Assembly (NCBI GenBank): GCA_942493075.1
Contig: OW818681.1
Coordinates: 5,899,296 to 5,963,295, forward strand
DNA from: an uncultured Verrucomicrobiota bacterium
Lineage (GTDB): Bacteria > Verrucomicrobiota > Verrucomicrobiia > Limisphaerales > UBA8199
Length of the DNA: 64,000 nucleotides
Direction: 5' to 3'
Part shown: positions 1 through 39,628 of the stretch, piece after piece
How the letters are laid out: every line of letters starts with the position of its first letter
How positions within the stretch are numbered: the first letter of the stretch is position 1
Translations under genes and position numbers: made by a program
The notes under the pieces: generated by a model
Databases searched by the model: none
What the model was told of the DNA's origin: nothing
Seen by the model: the letters and a program-made list of their open reading frames with translations, nothing else

Positions 1-877
1 CACGATGAACTTCTTCCGCAAAGGTCCGCAAGTGGTTGTCTATTGCGCCCAGGACCAGGTCTATGCCGAGCGGATCTTTAAACAATTCAAGGAACAAACC
101 GGGATTCGCGTGCTGGCTGTTTACGACAGCGAAGCGGTGAAGACAGTGGGCCTGGCCAACAGGTTGCTGGCCGAGAAGGCGCAACCCCGAGCAGACTTGT
201 TCTGGGGGAACGAGGAGTTGCGCGCGCGGCAATTGGCGCAACGAGGAATTTTCCGTGAGACGAATGGATTGGCGGTTTTCGGCTATCGTTCCCGCCGGTT
301 GGTGGTAAATACCAACACCTTTGATTTTTCGACGGCTCCTAAGAGTTGGCGTGATCTGACAAACTCGGTCTGGCAGGGCAAACTCGCTTTCGGATATCCC
401 CAGTTCGGCACCACCTCAACGCACTTCCACGCGCTGCGACAACATTGGGGCGAGCCCGCTTGGAAGGCCTGGTGCCTCGCTTTGGCCGCTAACAAACCGC
501 GGCTTGTGGATGGAAATTCGGTTGTGGTGAAGATGGTGGCCAGCGGTGAAGCCGTAATTGGCATGACCGATTCGGACGACATAGCCGCTGCGCAACGGGA
601 AGGCGCGCCTGTGGCTGCGTTGCCCATCGCTGAGGATTCGTTGCTGATACCGAATGCAGCCGGGTTGATTGCAGGCGGGCCGAACCCGAACCCGGCGGAG
701 GTTCTGTTCGAGTATTTGCAGAAACCTGAGGTCGCCCGCGAACTGGTATCGATGAATGCCCTCGAAGGTGTGTCCCCTGCTGAGATCCAAACTTCGACAC
801 TGAAGCCGGATTGGGAAACGATGCTGCGCGATCTTGATGCCACTGTGAGAATCTTGAACGAGATTTTTCTCCGATGA
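1..877 (+). CDS. ABC transporter periplasmic substrate-binding protein, Fe(III)/FbpA-AfuA-like. Probably 5'-partial: no signal peptide after the first ATG at 5, and the frame is open to the window edge.
   Basis: ORF 5..877 shows the family-1 solute-binding fold typical of iron(III) SBPs (VVVYCAQDQVYAERIFKQFKEQTGIRV...). It overlaps the next gene by ATGA. Confidence 0.7.
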   Translation, partial: TMNFFRKGPQVVVYCAQDQVYAERIFKQFKEQTGIRVLAVYDSEAVKTVGLANRLLAEKAQPRADLFWGNEELRARQLAQRGIFRETNGLAVFGYRSRRLVVNTNTFDFSTAPKSWRDLTNSVWQGKLAFGYPQFGTTSTHFHALRQHWGEPAWKAWCLALAANKPRLVDGNSVVVKMVASGEAVIGMTDSDDIAAAQREGAPVAALPIAEDSLLIPNAAGLIAGGPNPNPAEVLFEYLQKPEVARELVSMNALEGVSPAEIQTSTLKPDWETMLRDLDATVRILNEIFLR

Positions 878-3291
878 ATTGGGCACTGTTGTTAAACAGC
901 CTGGGCGTCGCTCTCCTGGCCACCGCGGGTGCGGTGATTGCCGGATTCGCGGCAGCCCTCTTCGCGCTTGCATGCGGTCGGCGCATGCGCTTCGCACTCT
1001 GTGCTTGTGGGGTCCTGGTTCTGGTGCTGCCTCCGTTTCTTGTGGCAAACGCGTGGCTGCACTACTTTGGTTTGAACGGGGCATGGCGCGGCGTGCTGCC
1101 ATTCAATGTGCTGACTTTGCCCGGCACAGCGTGGGTGTTGATCCTGCTTCTCTGGCCGATCACTTTCCTGCTTGTTCTTGCCGGGTGGCGACAATTGCAC
1201 CCAGTCCACTTCGAGAGCGACCCTGCGGTGCGCGGTCGATACCTGCTCCAGGCATTGTTAATCCCGTTCGCGGGTCCTGCCCTGGGTTGGGCGACCGTTA
1301 TCACCCTTGTGCTGGCCCTGAATCAGTTCACGGTGCCGGCTCTGTTACAGACCAAGGTGCTACCCGCTGAGATGTGGGTGCGCTATAACACGGAACTGGA
1401 TGCTTTGGGCGCGCTACGCATGAGCCTGCCCTTAATCCTTGGTCCCCTTGTCTTGCTTTTCTGGGTGCGACAGAAACCCGTGCCCTGGAAACAAACCCGG
1501 GAAGAGTTAACTCCGGCAACCGTGCGCCGCCAGTTAGGTGCAGTTTGGATCGGATTGGCATTCGTGATCACGGTGCCAATGATTGCGCTCTCGCTCGGAC
1601 TGCCCCTGTTCCAGATTCTATCCGCGCCGCGCACATGGATAGAGCTGCCGATGACTCTGGCGGCGGCCAAGGTATCGCTCGCGCACTCATTCCTGTATGC
1701 ATTGGTCGCCGCTACATCGTGCACGTGTCTCAGCTTGCTCGTTTGGCATCGGATGGTGCGCGGGTTCGCGTGGCTTCTGTTTCTCATCCCTGGAATGCTG
1801 CTGGGGCTTGGGCTGATCCGTTTGCTCAACACCTCATGGACAGGGTTGCTTTTTCAAACACCGCTGCTTGTATTGATCGGGCTGACGTTACGTTACATCG
1901 CGCTTCCAGCCAGCGTGCTGGCCGCTCAGGCGCGGCGCATTGATCCGAGAATCCTTGATGATGCACGGCTCCTTGGATTAAGCCTGCCGCAGCGCATCCG
2001 GCACGTCTATGCGCCGTCGTTGGCAGGTCCTGCCCTCGTGGTTTGGTACTGCGTGTTTCTCCTGTGCTTGTGGGACGTGGAAACCGCTTTGCTCCTGATT
2101 CCGCCCGGAGGCGAAACAGCGGCCTTGCGTGTGTTCAACCTGCTCCATGCCGGTTATAGCGCCCAGGTGAATGCCCTGTGCCTGGCGTTGCTGGCACTGG
2201 GGCTCTTGCCGCTGCTTTTCGTTCTAGTCGCCACGGTGATCTCCGGTGGTAAGCGTCGCATGAGCCTGCTCCGCTGGCTGCCGTTGATCCTGGCCACCGG
2301 GATGGCGGGATTGATCAGCGGTTGCTCGAAACCCCTTTCCTCTCAGTCAGCGCCGTTGGAGAGCCGTTTCTTCACGGAGGCTTCGGTGATCGCCTCGCGC
2401 GGTGCCGGTCCAGGAGAAGTCAACAAACCGCGCTCGGTCACGGTGGGCACGGATGGGGGGCTGTACGTGGTGGATATGACCGGGCGTGTGCAAAAGTTTT
2501 CTAACACCGGATCGTTCCTGAAATCGTGGCAGATGGAAAAGACGGACTTGGGCCGACCGAAAGGCTTGGGTGTGGACCGTGAAGGCAACATCATGGTGAA
2601 CGAGCCCCATTATTCGAAGGTCAACCATTTCACCACGGACGGCGCGCTGACGGTCCGATGGGGCGTGCACGGGACCAATGATGGGCAACTGGCGTTTCCG
2701 CGGGCGGTGGCGGTGAACTCGCGCAACGAAATCTACCTGAGCGAGTATGGCCTGGTAGAGCGAGTTCAGCGGTTCAGTTCTCGCGGGGAGAAATGGTTGG
2801 GGACCTTTGGTACCGCCGGATCAGCTCCGGGTCAGTTCAACCGTCCCGAAGGTCTGTGCATTGACCGGCAGGACCGTGTGTATGTGGCTGACTCGTGTAA
2901 TCATCGAATCCAGGTGTTCGACATGGACGGCAGGTTTCTGCATGCCTATGGCTCGGCAGGCACCGGGTTGGGGCAACTCAGTTATCCCTACGATATTTGT
3001 GTTGATGCGCAGGGGTTCCAGTTCGTCTGCGAGTTCGGCAACAGCCGCATTCAGGTGTTCGATCCGGAAGGCAAGCCGCTCGAAATCATAGGCGGACCGG
3101 GCCTGGCTCCTGGCCGATTTAACAATCCCTGGGGAGTAGCGCTCGATGGCTCAGGCAATCTGTATGTGGCGGATGCGTTGAACCATCGGGTGCAGAAACT
3201 GATCCGGCGTATCGGTGTGAGCCAGGCCCCTTCACAGCCAGGGCTTGCAGTTGAGCAGATCGCCTCACGCCGTGTGGGAGCCCATTCATGA
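874..3291 (+). CDS. Two-domain FbpB-like ABC permease (~460 aa, about 12 TM) fused in frame to a lipobox-bearing NHL-repeat beta-propeller (~340 aa).
   Basis: The N-terminal half is hydrophobic and permease-like. An internal Met at 2260 starts MSLLRWLPLILATGMAGLISGCS, a classic lipoprotein signal with lipobox ISGC. This is followed by NHL repeats (YVVDMTGRVQKF, VYVADSCNHRIQVFD, LYVADALNHRVQKL). No stop codon separates the two parts. Confidence 0.7.
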   Translation: MNWALLLNSLGVALLATAGAVIAGFAAALFALACGRRMRFALCACGVLVLVLPPFLVANAWLHYFGLNGAWRGVLPFNVLTLPGTAWVLILLLWPITFLLVLAGWRQLHPVHFESDPAVRGRYLLQALLIPFAGPALGWATVITLVLALNQFTVPALLQTKVLPAEMWVRYNTELDALGALRMSLPLILGPLVLLFWVRQKPVPWKQTREELTPATVRRQLGAVWIGLAFVITVPMIALSLGLPLFQILSAPRTWIELPMTLAAAKVSLAHSFLYALVAATSCTCLSLLVWHRMVRGFAWLLFLIPGMLLGLGLIRLLNTSWTGLLFQTPLLVLIGLTLRYIALPASVLAAQARRIDPRILDDARLLGLSLPQRIRHVYAPSLAGPALVVWYCVFLLCLWDVETALLLIPPGGETAALRVFNLLHAGYSAQVNALCLALLALGLLPLLFVLVATVISGGKRRMSLLRWLPLILATGMAGLISGCSKPLSSQSAPLESRFFTEASVIASRGAGPGEVNKPRSVTVGTDGGLYVVDMTGRVQKFSNTGSFLKSWQMEKTDLGRPKGLGVDREGNIMVNEPHYSKVNHFTTDGALTVRWGVHGTNDGQLAFPRAVAVNSRNEIYLSEYGLVERVQRFSSRGEKWLGTFGTAGSAPGQFNRPEGLCIDRQDRVYVADSCNHRIQVFDMDGRFLHAYGSAGTGLGQLSYPYDICVDAQGFQFVCEFGNSRIQVFDPEGKPLEIIGGPGLAPGRFNNPWGVALDGSGNLYVADALNHRVQKLIRRIGVSQAPSQPGLAVEQIASRRVGAHS

Positions 3292-6161
3292 GGTTTCAAT
3301 TCACCCATGCGCTCTATTTGCTGCTGCTGCTTCCCGCAGCCGCCTGGGTGATTTGGCTATGGGCCTGGACGGATGCCCAGCTCACACCTGTTCGACGATG
3401 GCTTTCTCTGGGTCTGCGCTGCATGGTTCTGCTTGCCTTGATCCTGGCGATCGCTGGCGCCCAGGCATTGCTCCCGGTCGATGGCATGAATGTTTTCTAC
3501 CTGCTGGATCGGTCCGATAGTGTTCCTGGCTCCGGCCAGGAAGCGGCTCGTGAATACGTGAATCGCAGTGCCCACACGAAGCGATCAACCGATCGCGCCG
3601 GAGCGGTTGTGTTCGGAAGCGAAGCCAGCATTGAGTTCCTGCCAAACACCATCGTGGATTTACCAAAGGTGCAGGCCGTCGTGGGCAGTGAGCGCACGGA
3701 TTTGGCTGAAGCCATTCGACTTGGCACCGCGGCACTGCCGGAAGCTGGGCAGAAACGGTTGGTGGTGCTTTCGGATGGAAATCAAAACTCGGGAGACGCT
3801 TTGGAAGCGGTGGCGGCGGCGCAGCGACTGGGTGCGACCGTGGATGTTGTTCCATTAGGCTCGGCTCGCCGTGGAGACGTCTCACTGCAACGCCTTGAAA
3901 TGCCGGCTCGATTGAAACGCGGCCAGCCTTTTGAATTGAAGATCGTGACTCAGGCTGAGGAAGCGCGCGAGGCCACCCTTCGGTTGTGGCGCAATGACCA
4001 GCTTCTCGGGGAACAGAAGATGCAGCTTAACCCTGGCAAAAACTTGCACTCACTTTCACAGCGTCTGGAAGAGCCCGGGTTCTACAATTACGAGGTTTTG
4101 CTGGAGATCCCGGGCGATCCGATCCCGCAGAACAATCGCGCTGCGGGTTTCGCTGTTGTAGCAGGAGAACCCAAGCTTCTAATCGTCTCGGATGACCCGG
4201 CGGCTGATAGGTCGCTGGCTTCCGCGCTCCAGAACGCCCAACTCCAGAGCAGCATGGTGGGGCTGAACGGATTCCCCACGAGCCTTGCAGAACTGCAGAC
4301 CTACGACACGGTTTTCATCAGCAACCTTTCGGCCGGTGATCTGGGAATGACCCGCCAGAGGTTGCTTGAGAGTGCGGTGCGCGATTTTGGGGTGGGGTTG
4401 GTGTGCGTGGGAGGCCCACAAACCTACGCGGCAGGGGGGTATCGCGGCACGCCATTAGAATCGGCCCTGCCGTTGAGCATGGAGTTGGATAGCAAGAAAG
4501 TGCTCCCGCCCGGTGCCGTGGTGTTGATCATGCACGGCATGGAGTTCATGAACGGCAACCAGGTGGCTCGCGATTGCGCGCAAGGCGTGCTGTCGGCGCT
4601 GGGCCCCGGAGATGAGATGGGCGTGCTGCTTTGGGATGGCAACGAGCGATGGCTCTTTCCTCTGGCCAAGGTCGGTGACCGCAAAGAGATGGCGCGACAG
4701 ATTGCGGGAATGAACCAGGGCGATCTGGCCAGTTTTCAAGGCGTCCTGCAAATGGCCCACGAAGCGTTGGCCAAATCCCGGGCCAGCCTCAAGCATATCA
4801 TTATCTTTAGCGATGGCGATCCGCAGGCCCCTAAACCCGAGCTGATGCAGGCGATTGTTAAGGACCGCATTACGGTAAGCAGTATCTTGATTGCCGGGCA
4901 TGTTGGACCCGAGACCATGATTCTCATGGCTGACGCCGGGCGCGGCCGCTTTTACAACATCACCTCCCCTGACGAGTTGCCTCAGGTGTTCATCAAAGAA
5001 ACCGCTGTTATTCTGAAGAGCGCCATTTACGAAGAACCATTTGTGCCTCAGGTGCGCTCGATGACCGAACCCGTGCGCGGCATTCAACCAGCCGAGTATC
5101 CTCAACTGCTCGGTTACGTGGCCACCACTCCGAAGCCGCGAGCCGAAACACCGCTCTGGACCCCGGCGAGCGATCCCTTGCTGGCGCATTGGCAATATGG
5201 TTTGGGCCGAGCGGTCGCTTTCACGTCAGACGCCCAGGCGCGCTGGGGCAAACACTGGACCAGTTGGGGCAAGTACCGACAATTCTGGACTCAACTTGCG
5301 CAATGGAGTCTGCGCCGGGCGGAGAGCGCCGACTTCGATGCGCGCATGAGCATTGAGAATGGTGAAGGATTGGTGAGCCTCGATGCGGTTGATGCCCAGG
5401 GCAATTACCGGAATTTTCTAAACCTGCAAGCTTCGCTAGTTGATCCCAAAGGGGATCGCCAAACGTTGCGCCTGGAGCAGAACGGCCCGGGCCATTACGA
5501 GGCGCGGTTCAAAACCCGGGTTAGCGGTGTCTATATGGCAAACGTTTTGGAACTGGCTGAGGGTGGCGTGCGAGCCGCGCAAGTGCTCGGCGCTACCGTG
5601 AGCTATTCGCCTGAGTTCAACACCGCCAGCCCTGATCTCGCGCTGCTGGGCCGCATCGCAGAGCGCGGAGGCGGAAAGCTCCTCGACTTGAACAATCCGA
5701 TCGCTGGTCCATTTTCTCATGACAGGATCAGAACCTTTCAGCCGCGCGATTTGTGGGAATGGTTGCTCCAGTTTGCTGTGCTCCTCTTCGTAGTTGATAT
5801 CGCGATGCGCCGCGTGATGATTGATCGCGAGGAATGGGCCGTCGGCTGGCGCCGTGTGCGCGCATGGATTCCGTTCTTGAAGCCCGCGAAGCAGGTCACT
5901 TCAAGCGACCCTTCGTTGTCGAGCCTGCTTGCGCGGCGGCATCAAGTGCGATCGCAGCAGCCCGTAGCTCCGCCGTCCAGTGCGCCGGAACATCTCTTTC
6001 AACCCCGGGAAGAACCCTCCGCGCCCGCGCCGGACCCAGCCTCTGCGTCATCAGTGCCGCCTGCACAACAGGCTCAGGCACCAAGTGCAACTGCCGCTCA
6101 GGGCAGCACCGCCAGCCGGTTGTTGGAAGCCAAGCGCCGCGCCCAAAAGAAGCAGGAATAG
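3288..6161 (+). CDS. BatA-like membrane-anchored VWA-domain protein. Architecture is VWA, a ThuA/class-I glutamine-amidotransferase-like domain, a second VWA-like region, a C-terminal TM segment and a Pro/Ala-rich tail.
   Basis: BatA-type N-terminus (MRFQFTHALYLLLLLPAAAW), a MIDAS motif DRSDS, and a second cluster IIIFSDGDP. The start overlaps the upstream stop by ATGA. Confidence 0.7.
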   Translation: MRFQFTHALYLLLLLPAAAWVIWLWAWTDAQLTPVRRWLSLGLRCMVLLALILAIAGAQALLPVDGMNVFYLLDRSDSVPGSGQEAAREYVNRSAHTKRSTDRAGAVVFGSEASIEFLPNTIVDLPKVQAVVGSERTDLAEAIRLGTAALPEAGQKRLVVLSDGNQNSGDALEAVAAAQRLGATVDVVPLGSARRGDVSLQRLEMPARLKRGQPFELKIVTQAEEAREATLRLWRNDQLLGEQKMQLNPGKNLHSLSQRLEEPGFYNYEVLLEIPGDPIPQNNRAAGFAVVAGEPKLLIVSDDPAADRSLASALQNAQLQSSMVGLNGFPTSLAELQTYDTVFISNLSAGDLGMTRQRLLESAVRDFGVGLVCVGGPQTYAAGGYRGTPLESALPLSMELDSKKVLPPGAVVLIMHGMEFMNGNQVARDCAQGVLSALGPGDEMGVLLWDGNERWLFPLAKVGDRKEMARQIAGMNQGDLASFQGVLQMAHEALAKSRASLKHIIIFSDGDPQAPKPELMQAIVKDRITVSSILIAGHVGPETMILMADAGRGRFYNITSPDELPQVFIKETAVILKSAIYEEPFVPQVRSMTEPVRGIQPAEYPQLLGYVATTPKPRAETPLWTPASDPLLAHWQYGLGRAVAFTSDAQARWGKHWTSWGKYRQFWTQLAQWSLRRAESADFDARMSIENGEGLVSLDAVDAQGNYRNFLNLQASLVDPKGDRQTLRLEQNGPGHYEARFKTRVSGVYMANVLELAEGGVRAAQVLGATVSYSPEFNTASPDLALLGRIAERGGGKLLDLNNPIAGPFSHDRIRTFQPRDLWEWLLQFAVLLFVVDIAMRRVMIDREEWAVGWRRVRAWIPFLKPAKQVTSSDPSLSSLLARRHQVRSQQPVAPPSSAPEHLFQPREEPSAPAPDPASASSVPPAQQAQAPSATAAQGSTASRLLEAKRRAQKKQE

Positions 6162-37653: not shown

Positions 37654-38928
37654 ATGTCCAGGTTGCCCTTTGAATTGTTACTGGCTTTGCGTTACTTACG
37701 ACCGAAACGAACCTTTGTTTCGGTCATCACGCTCATTTCAGTGCTCGGCGTGACCCTGGGCGTGGCCGTGCTGATCATCGTGATCAGCGTCATGAGCGGC
37801 TTCGATCGCCAGCTTCGCGAGAAAATCCTCGGGTTCAATACCCATATCAAAGTCCTCCCTGCGGGTGGGCTGACTGATAATTACGGGGAACTCATGCGCA
37901 AAATCAATGAGCACCCGCAAGTCATCGCCACCGCCCCGTTCGTCATGGGACGTGTCCTCCTCCAAACCGAGGCTGTGGATGACAAATCACGCTGGGAGGC
38001 CCCGTTGCTGCGCGGCTTGGACATCAGCCTCGAAACCAATTTAAGTATCCTGCCTCAAAGCATCATTGCCGGCGACTTCGATGTCAGCAACCGCGGGCTG
38101 CTGCTTGGCTCTGAATTCGCTCGCGCCATGGACCTGTGGGTTGGCGACCGGGTGAGTATCTATTCGCCCCATGACCTTCAGAAAATGAAGGAAGCCCAGG
38201 AAAAGGGAGACTCCCAGAAAGCTCGCCTCCCGGACGAGTTCGAAGTCCGCGGCATCTTCGATGTCGGCTATTACGAGTTCAACATGTCAGTGATCATGGC
38301 GTCCCTGGAGGATTCCCAGGAGCTCTATGCGTTGGAGAACAGCGTGCACGGCGTGCTGGTGATGCTCAAGGACCCGACCCAGGCCATGGTGGTGAAGGAA
38401 GATCTACAGAAGAAGCTCGGACGCGGTTTCGAATTCAGCACCTGGATGGAGGAGAACGAAAACCTGCTCAGCGCGCTGGTAGTGGAGAAGAACGTGATGT
38501 TTTACCTCCTGTTTTTCATCATGATCGTCGCTGCGCTCTGCATTTTAAGCGCGCTCATTACCTTCGTAGTGCAAAAGACGCGAGAGATCGGCATGCTCAA
38601 GGCCCTGGGCGCAACTGACTGGCAGGTGAGCATACTATTCTTAAGCCAGGGCGGGTTCGTGGGTGTTGTCGGCGTATTGGCTGGATACGGCTTGGGAATG
38701 CTGGCGCTGGCTTATCGCAACGAATTTCTGCGGTTTATGACCCAGATCACGGGGTTTGAGCTGTTCCCGCGGTCGATCTATCATTTTACTGAACTGCCTG
38801 CGTTGATTGTGCCGGGGGATGTCCTCCTCATCTGTGGCAGCGCCTTGGTGATCTGCGTTTTGGGCGGGCTGATTCCTGCCTGGCGCGCCGGGCGCCTCAA
38901 ACCCGTGGAGGCGCTTCGTTATGAATAG
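37654..38928 (+). CDS. lolE: Lipoprotein-releasing system permease LolC/LolE (FtsX/MacB-type).
   Basis: 4-TM FtsX fold with a large periplasmic loop. Overlaps lolD. Confidence 0.8.
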   Translation: MSRLPFELLLALRYLRPKRTFVSVITLISVLGVTLGVAVLIIVISVMSGFDRQLREKILGFNTHIKVLPAGGLTDNYGELMRKINEHPQVIATAPFVMGRVLLQTEAVDDKSRWEAPLLRGLDISLETNLSILPQSIIAGDFDVSNRGLLLGSEFARAMDLWVGDRVSIYSPHDLQKMKEAQEKGDSQKARLPDEFEVRGIFDVGYYEFNMSVIMASLEDSQELYALENSVHGVLVMLKDPTQAMVVKEDLQKKLGRGFEFSTWMEENENLLSALVVEKNVMFYLLFFIMIVAALCILSALITFVVQKTREIGMLKALGATDWQVSILFLSQGGFVGVVGVLAGYGLGMLALAYRNEFLRFMTQITGFELFPRSIYHFTELPALIVPGDVLLICGSALVICVLGGLIPAWRAGRLKPVEALRYE

Positions 38929-39628
38929 CGACCAACCGCTGCTTTCCGCCCGCGGGGTACACAAAACCTATAAGCTTGGCGCCCGCTCACTGGATGTTCT
39001 CCGTGGAGTGGATCTTGAACTGCAAACCGGTGATTTTGTGGCTTTGCGTGGCGCGTCTGGTGCCGGAAAGAGCACATTGCTCCATCTTTTGGGCGGGCTG
39101 GATACCCCCACGCGCGGCGAAGTATGGCTTTCAGGCCGAAACGTAGCACGCCTGTCCCGTGGCGAGCTGGCCCAACTGCGCAATCGCGAGGTGGGCTATA
39201 TCTTCCAGGCCTACTATCTTCTGCCCGAACTCGATGCCTTGGAAAACGTCTGCCTGCCTGCGCGCATGGCACGGACCTCCGCCAGCAAAGCCGCAGCCCG
39301 TGGACGCGAGCTGCTGGAGCGTGTGGGGCTTAAAGACCGCATCGAGCACAAGCCCTATGAACTATCGGGTGGCGAACAACAACGCGTGGCAATCGCTCGT
39401 GCCTTGATCAACGACCCCGGATTGATTCTCGCTGACGAACCCACCGGCAACCTGGATTCGCATACGGGTCAGGAAATCATAAACCTGCTGCTCTCTCTGC
39501 GAGCCGAGCGGAAATCCACGCTAGTCATTGCCACGCACGATGAAGTCCTGGCCAAACTGGCGCCGCGCGTGATCCGTCTTGTGGACGGTCTGGAAGAAAA
39601 ACCTGTGCCGACGACAGAGGCGCAATGA
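38921..39628 (+). CDS. lolD: Lipoprotein-releasing ABC ATPase LolD
   Basis: [38 protein letters not shown]. Confidence 0.85.

Follow-up and report, generated by a model that had tools for sequence, protein, structure and literature searches.

The locus considered here raises the question of why a single gene should encode a membrane permease and, in the same frame and without an intervening stop codon, a second segment with the features of an independent lipoprotein, signal peptide included. It lies at the beginning of a 64,000-nucleotide stretch of DNA from an uncultured Verrucomicrobiota bacterium (contig OW818681.1; this whole stretch is called the window below), in an open reading frame (ORF) at 874–3291 on the plus strand that is 805 amino acids (aa) long, and in which a permease related to those of ATP-binding cassette (ABC) importers runs on into an NHL-repeat beta-propeller. 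A preliminary description of this DNA had left two explanations standing: either a genuine fusion, in which a former signal peptide acts as an extra transmembrane (TM) helix that exports the propeller to the periplasm, or a lost stop or assembly artefact. The answer reached below is that the ORF is an intact, conserved gene of a verrucomicrobium of the Limisphaerales/Pedosphaera type, and that its product is probably (we would put the probability at about 0.6) a precursor, from which the permease and an NHL lipoprotein would be separated at the internal lipobox, both then serving as subunits of a Bat-like membrane system.

The existence of the ORF was verified by inspection of the sequence, which also bears out its description as one frame with the permease first and the NHL segment after it. 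The overlaps of the form ATGA that were said to join the gene to its two neighbours are both there: the permease start overlaps the stop of the upstream binding-protein gene at 874–877, and the stop of the ORF overlaps the start of the downstream VWA gene at 3288–3291. So are the Met at 2260 (Met463, encoded by 2260–2262, with GGKRR before it and MSLLRWLPLILATGMAGLISGC after it) and the lipobox ISGC. Of the stops close to the junction in other frames, the TGA at 2237 and the TGA at 2261 had been described correctly, but 2237 is not the only one of its kind, since a TAG at 2225 and a TAA at 2250 also exist. The parts of the gene, with the evidence used for each, are as follows.

874–2247, plus strand: permease part, residues 1–458, two tandem type I ABC-importer transmembrane-domain modules (5 + 6 TM helices); profile comparison, Foldseek and hydropathy.
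1210–1266, plus strand: EAA-type coupling loop of module 1 (ESDPAVRG...LLIPFA), cytoplasmic; residue conservation.
1942–2016, plus strand: EAA-type coupling loop of module 2 (DDARLLGLSLPQRIRHVYAP), cytoplasmic; residue conservation and fit to EAA-x3-G-x9-I-x-LP.
2230–2259, plus strand: cytoplasmic loop ATVISGGKRR after the last permease TM helix, a positively charged n-region; charge counts in homologs.
2260–2322, plus strand: putative internal lipoprotein-type signal peptide, residues 463–483 (MSLLRWLPLILATGMAGLISG); model, conservation and length.
2314–2325, plus strand: lipobox I-S-G-C, with Cys484 as predicted lipidation site and a predicted signal peptidase II cut between G483 and C484; conservation.
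2326–2370, plus strand: Ser/Pro/Ala-rich tether, residues 485–499 (SKPLSSQSAPLESRF); predicted local distance difference test score (pLDDT) and spacing.
2371–3213, plus strand: six-bladed NHL beta-propeller, residues 500–780, predicted to be periplasmic; Pfam, profile comparison and Foldseek.
3214–3291, plus strand: unconserved, disordered C-terminal tail and stop codon; pLDDT and conservation.

Whether the gene is genuine can be judged first from its homologs. A search with the window protein matches 996 database proteins at E ≤ 1e-5; the best 120 of these are nearly all about 775–1000 aa long, most of them cover 93–100% of the query at about 50–56% identity, and nearly all contain both BPD_transp_1 and NHL, the database annotation of fused homologs being generic only. 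In a scan of one genome per species, relatives were found in at least 583 species-representative genomes, and nearly every one of the best 80 belongs to the Verrucomicrobiota, under the label Limisphaerales, Pedosphaera or subdivision 3. At the level of DNA, the permease and NHL segments lie in one frame, stop-free between them, in 80 of 81 loci, a count that is biased in that the loci were ranked by a full-length fused profile and that was corrected by an NHL-only search and an exhaustive permease-only search (see below); a further 85 loci, mostly metagenomic, gave the same frame with no stop at the junction in 79 cases. Assignment as fused or split by motif alone had missed about 20 loci, as a result of motif drift, and was replaced by a test of frame and stops between tblastn segments. 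Support on this scale for the fused gene is far beyond chance.

A second line of evidence comes from an independent strain contig from another project (L001), which is 97.3% identical to the window in DNA sequence over 6.2 kb. Within the permease/NHL gene the two differ by 63 substitutions, five of them at 2200–2330, and the junction itself contains no indel. Only one indel distinguishes L001 in this gene: two extra nucleotides, AA, inserted in a run of A after window position 1855 (around position 10020 in L001), some 400 nt upstream of the junction. Because of it the L001 gene is called as two pieces, of 334 and 485 aa. This insertion is probably a homopolymer error of that assembly, the window copy being intact.

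These results dispose of the explanation by a lost stop, a frameshift or an assembly or sequencing error that joined two genes. In its favour it might be said that split orthologs exist which differ by as little as one in-frame stop (L050 and L082, described below), and that even a contig as close as L001 has, away from the junction, a 2-nt indel in this gene; but the same fused frame recurs in hundreds of independent assemblies from different projects, at 45–84% identity, the L001 junction is free of indels, and the one indel belongs to L001 while the window gene is intact. An artefact is therefore scarcely credible, and of the two alternatives originally offered it is the genuine fusion, supported by hundreds of fused homologs and by the L001 junction, that survives. 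As a separate observation, three fused homologs (P0017, 1000 aa; P0057, 923 aa; P0115, 849 aa) have long stretches of low complexity inserted into the cytoplasmic loop ahead of the signal peptide, or are extended beyond the propeller, which shows that this loop and the C-terminal region tolerate large changes.

It had been suggested that orthologous loci be examined for separate permease and NHL genes, and such loci were indeed found. In L050 a 462-aa permease ORF ends at an in-frame stop just after TM11 and is followed by an NHL ORF with a GTG start, whose 376-aa product has its own n-region and a lipobox, ALSGC; in L082/L083 the junction reads TAA-gca-ATG (seen on 15 contigs), and in L084/L085 the two genes overlap by 8 nt in different frames (seen on 8 contigs), each of these last two in the same operon. 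In all three cases (L050, L082 and L084) the signal peptide of the NHL protein is N-terminal and the proteins are ordinary lipoprotein precursors. With the L050 NHL protein as query, many relatives of 300–450 aa are recovered, and 68 of the best 120 NHL-only matches have no more than 45 residues before the lipobox Cys, often forming textbook signal peptides such as MKAVPFLLVLLPALLLGC, although some of the 68 are possibly truncated gene calls. The split permeases, of about 465 aa, end right after TM11 and lack the junction helix, which argues that this helix belongs functionally to the NHL part.

Among full-length representatives, the exhaustive permease-only search, which favours neither the fused nor the split state, gave about 29 fused proteins (763–906 aa) against 15 split ones (436–475 aa). 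A neighbour-joining tree of the NHL domains requires at least 12 changes between fused and split states and contains three sizeable split clades among fused proteins; the tree is rough and indicative only, several of its singleton split tips being truncated calls (P0234 and P0164, for example), so that only the three larger clades and the loci verified in DNA were trusted as split. The split loci represent the same system in another state, and are not evidence of an error in the window.

The fused gene being genuine, the next question is what lies at its junction, beginning with its topology. By hydropathy and the positive-inside rule, the two EAA loops and the KRR loop are cytoplasmic and the propeller lies outside. 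The second EAA loop is followed by TM10, which leads through a periplasmic loop to TM11; next comes the K/R-rich loop ATVISGGKRR, and after it the junction helix. With the EAA loops cytoplasmic, and two TM helices plus the junction helix following the second of them, the propeller should come to lie outside. A periplasmic location, as proposed in the preliminary description, thus fits this argument from hydropathy and charge.

The junction itself reads, from Met463 onwards, as a lipoprotein signal peptide. On direct inspection the PROSITE-type lipoprotein rule is satisfied, in that an Arg is found within the first seven residues, the Cys is residue 22, positions −10 to −5 are free of charge, and the Cys is preceded by L-I-S-G. 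In homologs the loop preceding it varies in length but keeps its charge (mean K+R 2.7 against 0.23 for D+E), and conservation is low both in this loop (0.23) and in the junction helix (0.28). An AlphaFold model, built from 52 family members and with a mean pLDDT of 85, makes the junction helix only 13 residues long (469–481) and of low confidence, with pLDDT below 50 at residues 482–488. Conservation rises sharply at the lipobox. An alignment of 52 members (A1) shows C484 in every sequence and G483 conserved to at least 90%; the Cys is retained without exception in over 150 fused homologs, at identities as low as about 30%, including those of a second alignment (A2) of divergent fused members that are about 30% identical to one another. 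All 120 of the best homologs have a small residue (Gly in 98, Ser in 13, Ala in 9) followed by Cys after a hydrophobic stretch, with L, V, I or F at −3 in 106; the full pattern [LVI][ASTVI][GAS]C, from −3 to +1, is present in 103. The usual form in the family is L-[T/A/S]-[G/S/A]-C, where the window has ISGC at residues 481–484.

Spacing tells the same story. The distance from the Cys to the first propeller motif, NKPRS, is fixed at 29–36 residues, while the separation of the Cys from the conserved NLLH motif of the permease ranges between 36 and 111 residues. Uncharged residues preceding the Cys form a run with a median length of 15 (interquartile range 14–16), fused forms (n = 153) not differing from split ones (n = 38; p = 0.35), and a C-[S/A/T]-P sequence after the lipobox is common to both. 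Unlike that of the split orthologs, the signal peptide of the window protein is internal, beginning at residue 463 behind 11 TM helices. The comparison of homologs leaves little doubt that the lipobox is under selection, and the drift of the junction around it follows the pattern of a lipoprotein signal peptide rather than that of a packed TM helix. Since the Cys is invariant, the helix poorly conserved and its length that of the split orthologs, a still-working lipoprotein signal peptide is the most likely description. The earlier picture of a former signal peptide serving as an extra TM helix therefore holds in so far as the helix would thread the propeller outward, but not in calling the signal peptide merely a former one, given the invariant Cys.

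On this basis the following course of events can be proposed. The permease would insert co-translationally, and the junction helix would thread the propeller into the periplasm; Lgt would then add diacylglycerol to Cys484, after which signal peptidase II (LspA) would cut between G483 and C484. The products would be a permease that keeps the signal peptide as an extra helix at its C-terminus and a lipid-anchored NHL propeller, in a 1:1 ratio, both of them subunits of a periplasm-facing Bat-like membrane system, and the purpose of the fusion would be co-translational delivery and 1:1 dosage. Of the individual steps, lipidation at Cys484 can be expected with some confidence, while cleavage by signal peptidase II is probable but carries less assurance. 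Because the two states interconvert, because the split form is an ordinary lipoprotein, and because the fused form keeps its lipobox amid drift, the simplest reading is that the mature products are identical in both. The organism also has lipoprotein-sorting machinery (LolCE/LolD), as judged from two genes elsewhere in the window: one for a LolC/E-like permease at 37654–38928 on the plus strand, and then one for LolD at 38921–39628, also on the plus strand (NCBIfam LolD, E = 1.8e-78).

The chief competitor is a fusion that is equally genuine but stays uncleaved, the junction helix being a permanent twelfth TM anchor that tethers the propeller; in a variant of it the conserved Cys would be lipidated without cleavage, or would form a disulfide with cysteines at the periplasmic face of the permease. 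That the fused state dominates (in the DNA loci counted above, and in about two thirds of representatives) does suggest that the linkage is useful, and permeases with an extracytoplasmic domain tethered by a signal-anchor helix are known from the OpuA/GlnPQ type. A packed TM helix, however, should be conserved and about 20 residues long, whereas the junction helix has a conservation of 0.28, only 13 helical residues and a median uncharged run of 15; it is the whole lipobox pattern that is kept (L at −3, a small residue at −1) and not the Cys alone; the helix is absent altogether from split permeases; and repeated interconversion of fused and split states would be easiest if the mature products were the same. 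A permanent tether is thus the less likely of the two readings, though still the main competitor.

Several points nevertheless weigh against a cleaved precursor. Literature searches turned up no described case in which a lipobox lying internally, after a polytopic membrane protein, is processed (nor anything on permease–NHL fusions or on permease fusions containing a lipobox), and acceptance of such an internal substrate by Lgt and LspA is assumed. The same sequence pattern would be expected of a junction that is lipidated but not cleaved, or of a Cys that has been retained for some other reason, and conservation extends to C398 and C436, two cysteines on the periplasmic face of the permease, as a disulfide-bonded variant would have it. 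The persistence of fused forms in most lineages suggests some benefit of covalent linkage, which an uncleaved tether would also predict. For database proteins, assignment as fused or split depends in part on gene calls, and these can be cut short where a contig ends. Finally, that the products play a part in a complex is conjecture, as what Bat-like systems do has itself been elusive (see below).

A different way of obtaining the NHL lipoprotein would be to make it, also or mainly, from an internal start at Met463 (ATG at 2260), read-through from the permease being incidental. There is a GGTGGT 10–15 nt upstream of this ATG, matching GGAGGT at five of six positions, the product from Met463 would be a textbook lipoprotein precursor, and translating the NHL lipoprotein separately is viable, as the split orthologs show. 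Against this, Met463 is replaced by Ile in P0004 (82% identity) and is absent in P0002 (70%), and any Met at all 8–30 residues before the Cys is found in only 19 of 60 loci, so that as a feature of the family an internal start is ruled out by the lack of conservation of Met463. Moreover, with no stop between the two parts, ribosomes from the permease read on, and a scan for promoters and terminators gave no signal above chance, and none at the junction. Even for the window alone this explanation is improbable.

Turning to the permease part, the family profile matches Thermus thermophilus FbpB (PDB 9j4r) at E = 1.5e-20, residues 2–444 against 31–478, and PotC at E = 6e-18, while a Foldseek comparison of the model with 9j4r gives a target-normalised template-modelling score (TM-score) of 0.72 over 473 aligned columns. 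The NCBIfam models PhnU2 (residues 4–446) and PotC (residues 268–456) also match, both far below their curated cut-offs; Pfam BPD_transp_1 (PF00528) is not reported for the window protein at E ≤ 0.01, but is precomputed for most full-length homologs. The part is thus a type I ABC importer permease with FbpB, ThiP and PotBC among its relatives. Further out, the permease-only search reaches canonical FbpB-like proteins of 500–548 aa at 27–32% identity. The permease had been described as a complete two-domain one of FbpB-like type; the two modules are indeed present, but the N-terminal 30–50 or so residues of canonical FbpB-type permeases (about one TM helix) are absent, and hydropathy gives 11 TM segments rather than 12, with the N-terminus outside and the C-terminus inside. 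The AlphaFold model has pLDDT values mostly of 80–97 over this part.

Both EAA loops retain conserved positions in alignment A1. In loop 1 (residues 113–131; mean conservation 0.71) P131 does not vary, and conservation is at least 90% at E114, D116 and G121, while in loop 2 (DDARLLG...VYAP, residues 357–381; mean conservation 0.68) D357, G368 and P381 are invariant and A364, L366, A369, W372 and R376 at least 90% conserved. Conservation of these loops makes a cytoplasmic partner for them likely. The most conserved permease segments are two periplasmic stretches, residues 147–177 (0.85) and 401–433 (0.89), which we take to correspond to those lining the translocation path in canonical relatives, and which would argue for a working channel. 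Four cysteines are invariant or nearly so: C398 (2065–2067) and C436 (2179–2181), at the periplasmic ends of TM10 and TM11, and C675 (2896–2898) and C719 (3028–3030), in propeller blades 4 and 5. All four may form periplasmic disulfides.

The propeller is the better conserved of the two parts (0.80, as against 0.70 for the permease). Pfam NHL matches the C-terminal 300 residues at E = 4.3e-32 (109 bits), which together with the match to six-bladed folds agrees with the roughly six NHL repeats counted at the outset. The AlphaFold model has 24 strands between residues 492 and 778, with pLDDT above 90 in the propeller; the family profile matches the NHL domains of Thin and TRIM71 at E = 1e-66 to 1e-69 (2.6e-69 to Thin), and Foldseek gives target-normalised TM-scores of 0.88–0.92 to the NHL domains of Thin, TRIM71, TRIM2 and TRIM3. 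The tail that follows is disordered (pLDDT below 50 at residues 783–805) and hardly conserved at all (0.12). An enzymatic NHL domain of the PAL or lactonase type was considered and rejected, as the closest matches are scaffold propellers of the TRIM and PknD types; nor can an active site be argued for, the conserved D/E-x-x-N-H-R residues being the generic motif of NHL repeats.

The surroundings of the gene were at first referred to simply as an operon, which in combination with an importer-like permease is misleading, since the cluster is of the MoxR–DUF58–BatA–VWA (Bat-like) type and no ABC ATPase adjoins the gene. The order in L001 is a 637-aa protein that we cannot assign, MoxR (Pfam AAA_3, E = 1.1e-63), DUF58 (E = 1.4e-29), BatA (E = 1.2e-13, with VWA_2), the binding protein, the permease/NHL protein and a 957-aa VWA/GATase1-like protein, from which it follows that the MoxR, DUF58 and BatA genes lie just upstream of the first base of the window. 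This order recurs in essentially every locus with enough flank among the 166 examined, from genomes and metagenomes, and in essentially all of them a VWA gene follows immediately downstream of the permease/NHL gene. The two neighbours that fall within the window are:

5–877, plus strand: 3′ part of a gene for a solute-binding protein (cluster D, FbpA/PhnS/thiamine-like); Pfam SBP_bac_11, E = 1.1e-13.
3288–6161, plus strand: gene for a 957-aa membrane protein with two VWA domains and a GATase1-like domain; Pfam VWA, VWA_2 and GATase1_like.

A scan of the 166 loci (2.3 Mb) for Walker A, LSGG and Walker B motifs found no ABC ATPase beside the permease/NHL gene. Three ABC-ATPase-like ORFs were detected in all, in two loci and 7–8 kb from the gene, and these are of the LolD/MacB and Opp/Dpp types; in the 64-kb window the sole ABC ATPase is LolD, 35 kb away. 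Given this absence from the cluster, any nucleotide-binding partner that the permease may have must be encoded elsewhere. Among the called genes of L001, L082 and L084 there is also no BatC/BatE (TPR) or BatD, although no dedicated search for these was made.

Some further features of these clusters may be recorded here. The first gene, of about 640–700 codons and always just before MoxR (2277–4190 in L001), belongs to no Pfam family and gives weak matches of a Rad50-type, coiled-coil-like kind. The gap between MoxR and DUF58 contains insertions in L082/L083 (3954–4400) and in L084 (4236–4808), one being an IS200-type Y1 transposase gene and the other a gene of the Uma2 family. In L086 (the 6.03-Mb contig ERZ25039534 contig_1519) there is no MoxR or DUF58 directly upstream, their place being taken by a 1999-aa Ig-repeat protein on the other strand; the gene calls of this locus also miss the N-terminal half of the permease, perhaps owing to frameshifts in a long-read assembly.

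The binding protein bears on what might be transported. The window begins about 54 codons inside its gene, which in L001 is complete and encodes 344 aa with an N-terminal TM anchor; the binding proteins are membrane-tethered, in some lineages by such an N-terminal anchor, which a conserved motif on the cytoplasmic side (NWPKDEFGRxE) precedes, and in others by an N-terminal lipobox. Among solved structures that of T. thermophilus FbpA (3wae; E = 4e-11) is nearest; its NHYY aligns to TDSDD, and D243, D245 and D246 are invariant in all 65 family members, as part of an invariant motif G-[L/M]-T-D-S-D-D that stands where ferric-binding proteins have a Tyr-Tyr pair as ligands of Fe. Specificity for iron is not supported, so that the term “iron-type” applied to the permease at the outset is acceptable as a label for the family but not as a statement of specificity; the acidic motif suggests that the substrate may be a cation. 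The gene is present in most loci, directly upstream (in the window with the ATGA overlap), but is missing, with BatA abutting the permease/NHL gene, from L037, L039, L052, L055, L058, L072 and L075, and likewise from L117–L119, L132, L140 and L149. In those lineages, therefore, the binding protein is dispensable or encoded elsewhere.

Two things are surprising about this gene, namely an internal lipobox under selection and an ABC-type permease that has no cis ABC ATPase and sits inside a MoxR–VWA cluster. A reading that takes in both, as a natural polyprotein cut by Lgt and LspA at an internal lipobox together with a permease built into a MoxR–VWA machine rather than serving a classical importer, can be put forward only tentatively, as possible rather than probable. 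If the internal lipobox is processed, Lgt and LspA must act on a signal peptide behind eleven TM helices, a polyprotein strategy would deliver a lipoprotein beside its membrane partner in a 1:1 ratio, and the prediction of lipoproteins would have to change, as current tools consider N-termini only; the fused and split orthologs would then amount to a natural experiment on such processing. If the permease is a built-in part of the MoxR–VWA machine, Bat systems would be linked to the handling of solutes, perhaps of a cation. If, on the other hand, the junction is a plain anchor, the case becomes one of an ordinary though widespread domain fusion. In any event, a conserved module made up of a binding protein with an acidic site, a permease without a cis ABC ATPase and an NHL lipoprotein, present in MoxR–DUF58–BatA–VWA clusters across a verrucomicrobial order abundant in soil and freshwater, offers a testable handle on Bat-like systems.

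It remains to compare the gene with known systems. With permeases of the FbpB type (for ferric iron, thiamine, 2-aminoethylphosphonate or polyamines; 9j4r) it shares the fold, the two modules and the two EAA loops, and as in importers of that type a gene for a cluster-D binding protein lies upstream. It differs in its low identity (about 21–32%), in the missing N-terminal TM helix, in having no ABC ATPase in its operon (166 loci) and in the lipoprotein module attached to its C-terminus; and in contrast to FbpABC the binding protein lacks the ferric Tyr-Tyr pair and its gene is absent from some loci.

With Bat, or MoxR–VWA, operons the cluster has in common a MoxR AAA+ ATPase, DUF58, a BatA with an N-terminal double TM segment and a VWA domain, and a further VWA protein, whereas Bat operons as described carry TPR proteins and BatD. 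To our knowledge no reported Bat operon includes an ABC permease, a solute-binding protein or an NHL lipoprotein, and this verrucomicrobial lineage appears to be alone in having the module inserted between BatA and the second VWA gene. The function of the Bat (Bacteroides aerotolerance) system has been elusive since 1999 (PMC3557215), but for BB0173 of Borrelia the VWA domain, which is of the BatA type, has been shown to be on the periplasmic side (PMC5700661), and would by that analogy share a compartment with the NHL lipoprotein. That the propeller might be a periplasmic partner of the VWA proteins is conjecture. A parallel for its placement is PknD of Mycobacterium tuberculosis (1rwi/1rwl), the six-bladed NHL propeller of which is held outside the membrane on an anchor (Foldseek target-normalised TM-score 0.85); there a single TM helix leads to a Ser/Thr kinase, while here the propeller is attached, at least in the precursor, to a transporter permease, and a lipobox is present.

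Importers of the OpuA/GlnPQ type, in which van der Heide and Poolman in 2002 are said to have described a substrate-binding domain fused to the permease by way of a signal-anchor helix, resemble the window protein in carrying an extracytoplasmic domain at the C-terminus of a permease behind one extra hydrophobic segment that reverses the topology. The fused domain here, however, is an NHL propeller and not of the periplasmic-binding-protein fold, a binding protein being encoded separately, and the linking segment has an invariant lipobox and the length of a signal peptide. Lipoprotein precursors handled by Lgt and LspA have the same positive n-region, short h-region, lipobox and flexible Ser/Pro tether, but the signal peptide of the fused form is internal, behind 11 TM helices. 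For a polyprotein of this general design the nearest precedent known to us is FbcH of Bradyrhizobium japonicum, which was reportedly described by Thony-Meyer et al. in 1991 as a cytochrome b/c1 polyprotein cut at an internal signal peptide. One gene there encodes a polytopic protein, an internal signal peptide and a periplasmic domain, giving two subunits of one complex, but FbcH is said to be cut by leader peptidase (type I) and not to be lipidated, where a type II site is predicted here, and the two have no sequence relationship. The fused protein resembles at one and the same time an FbpB-like permease, a permease with a tethered domain and a lipoprotein precursor, and departs from each in a defining feature: it has no nucleotide-binding domain in cis, its fused domain is not of the binding-protein fold, and its signal peptide is not N-terminal.

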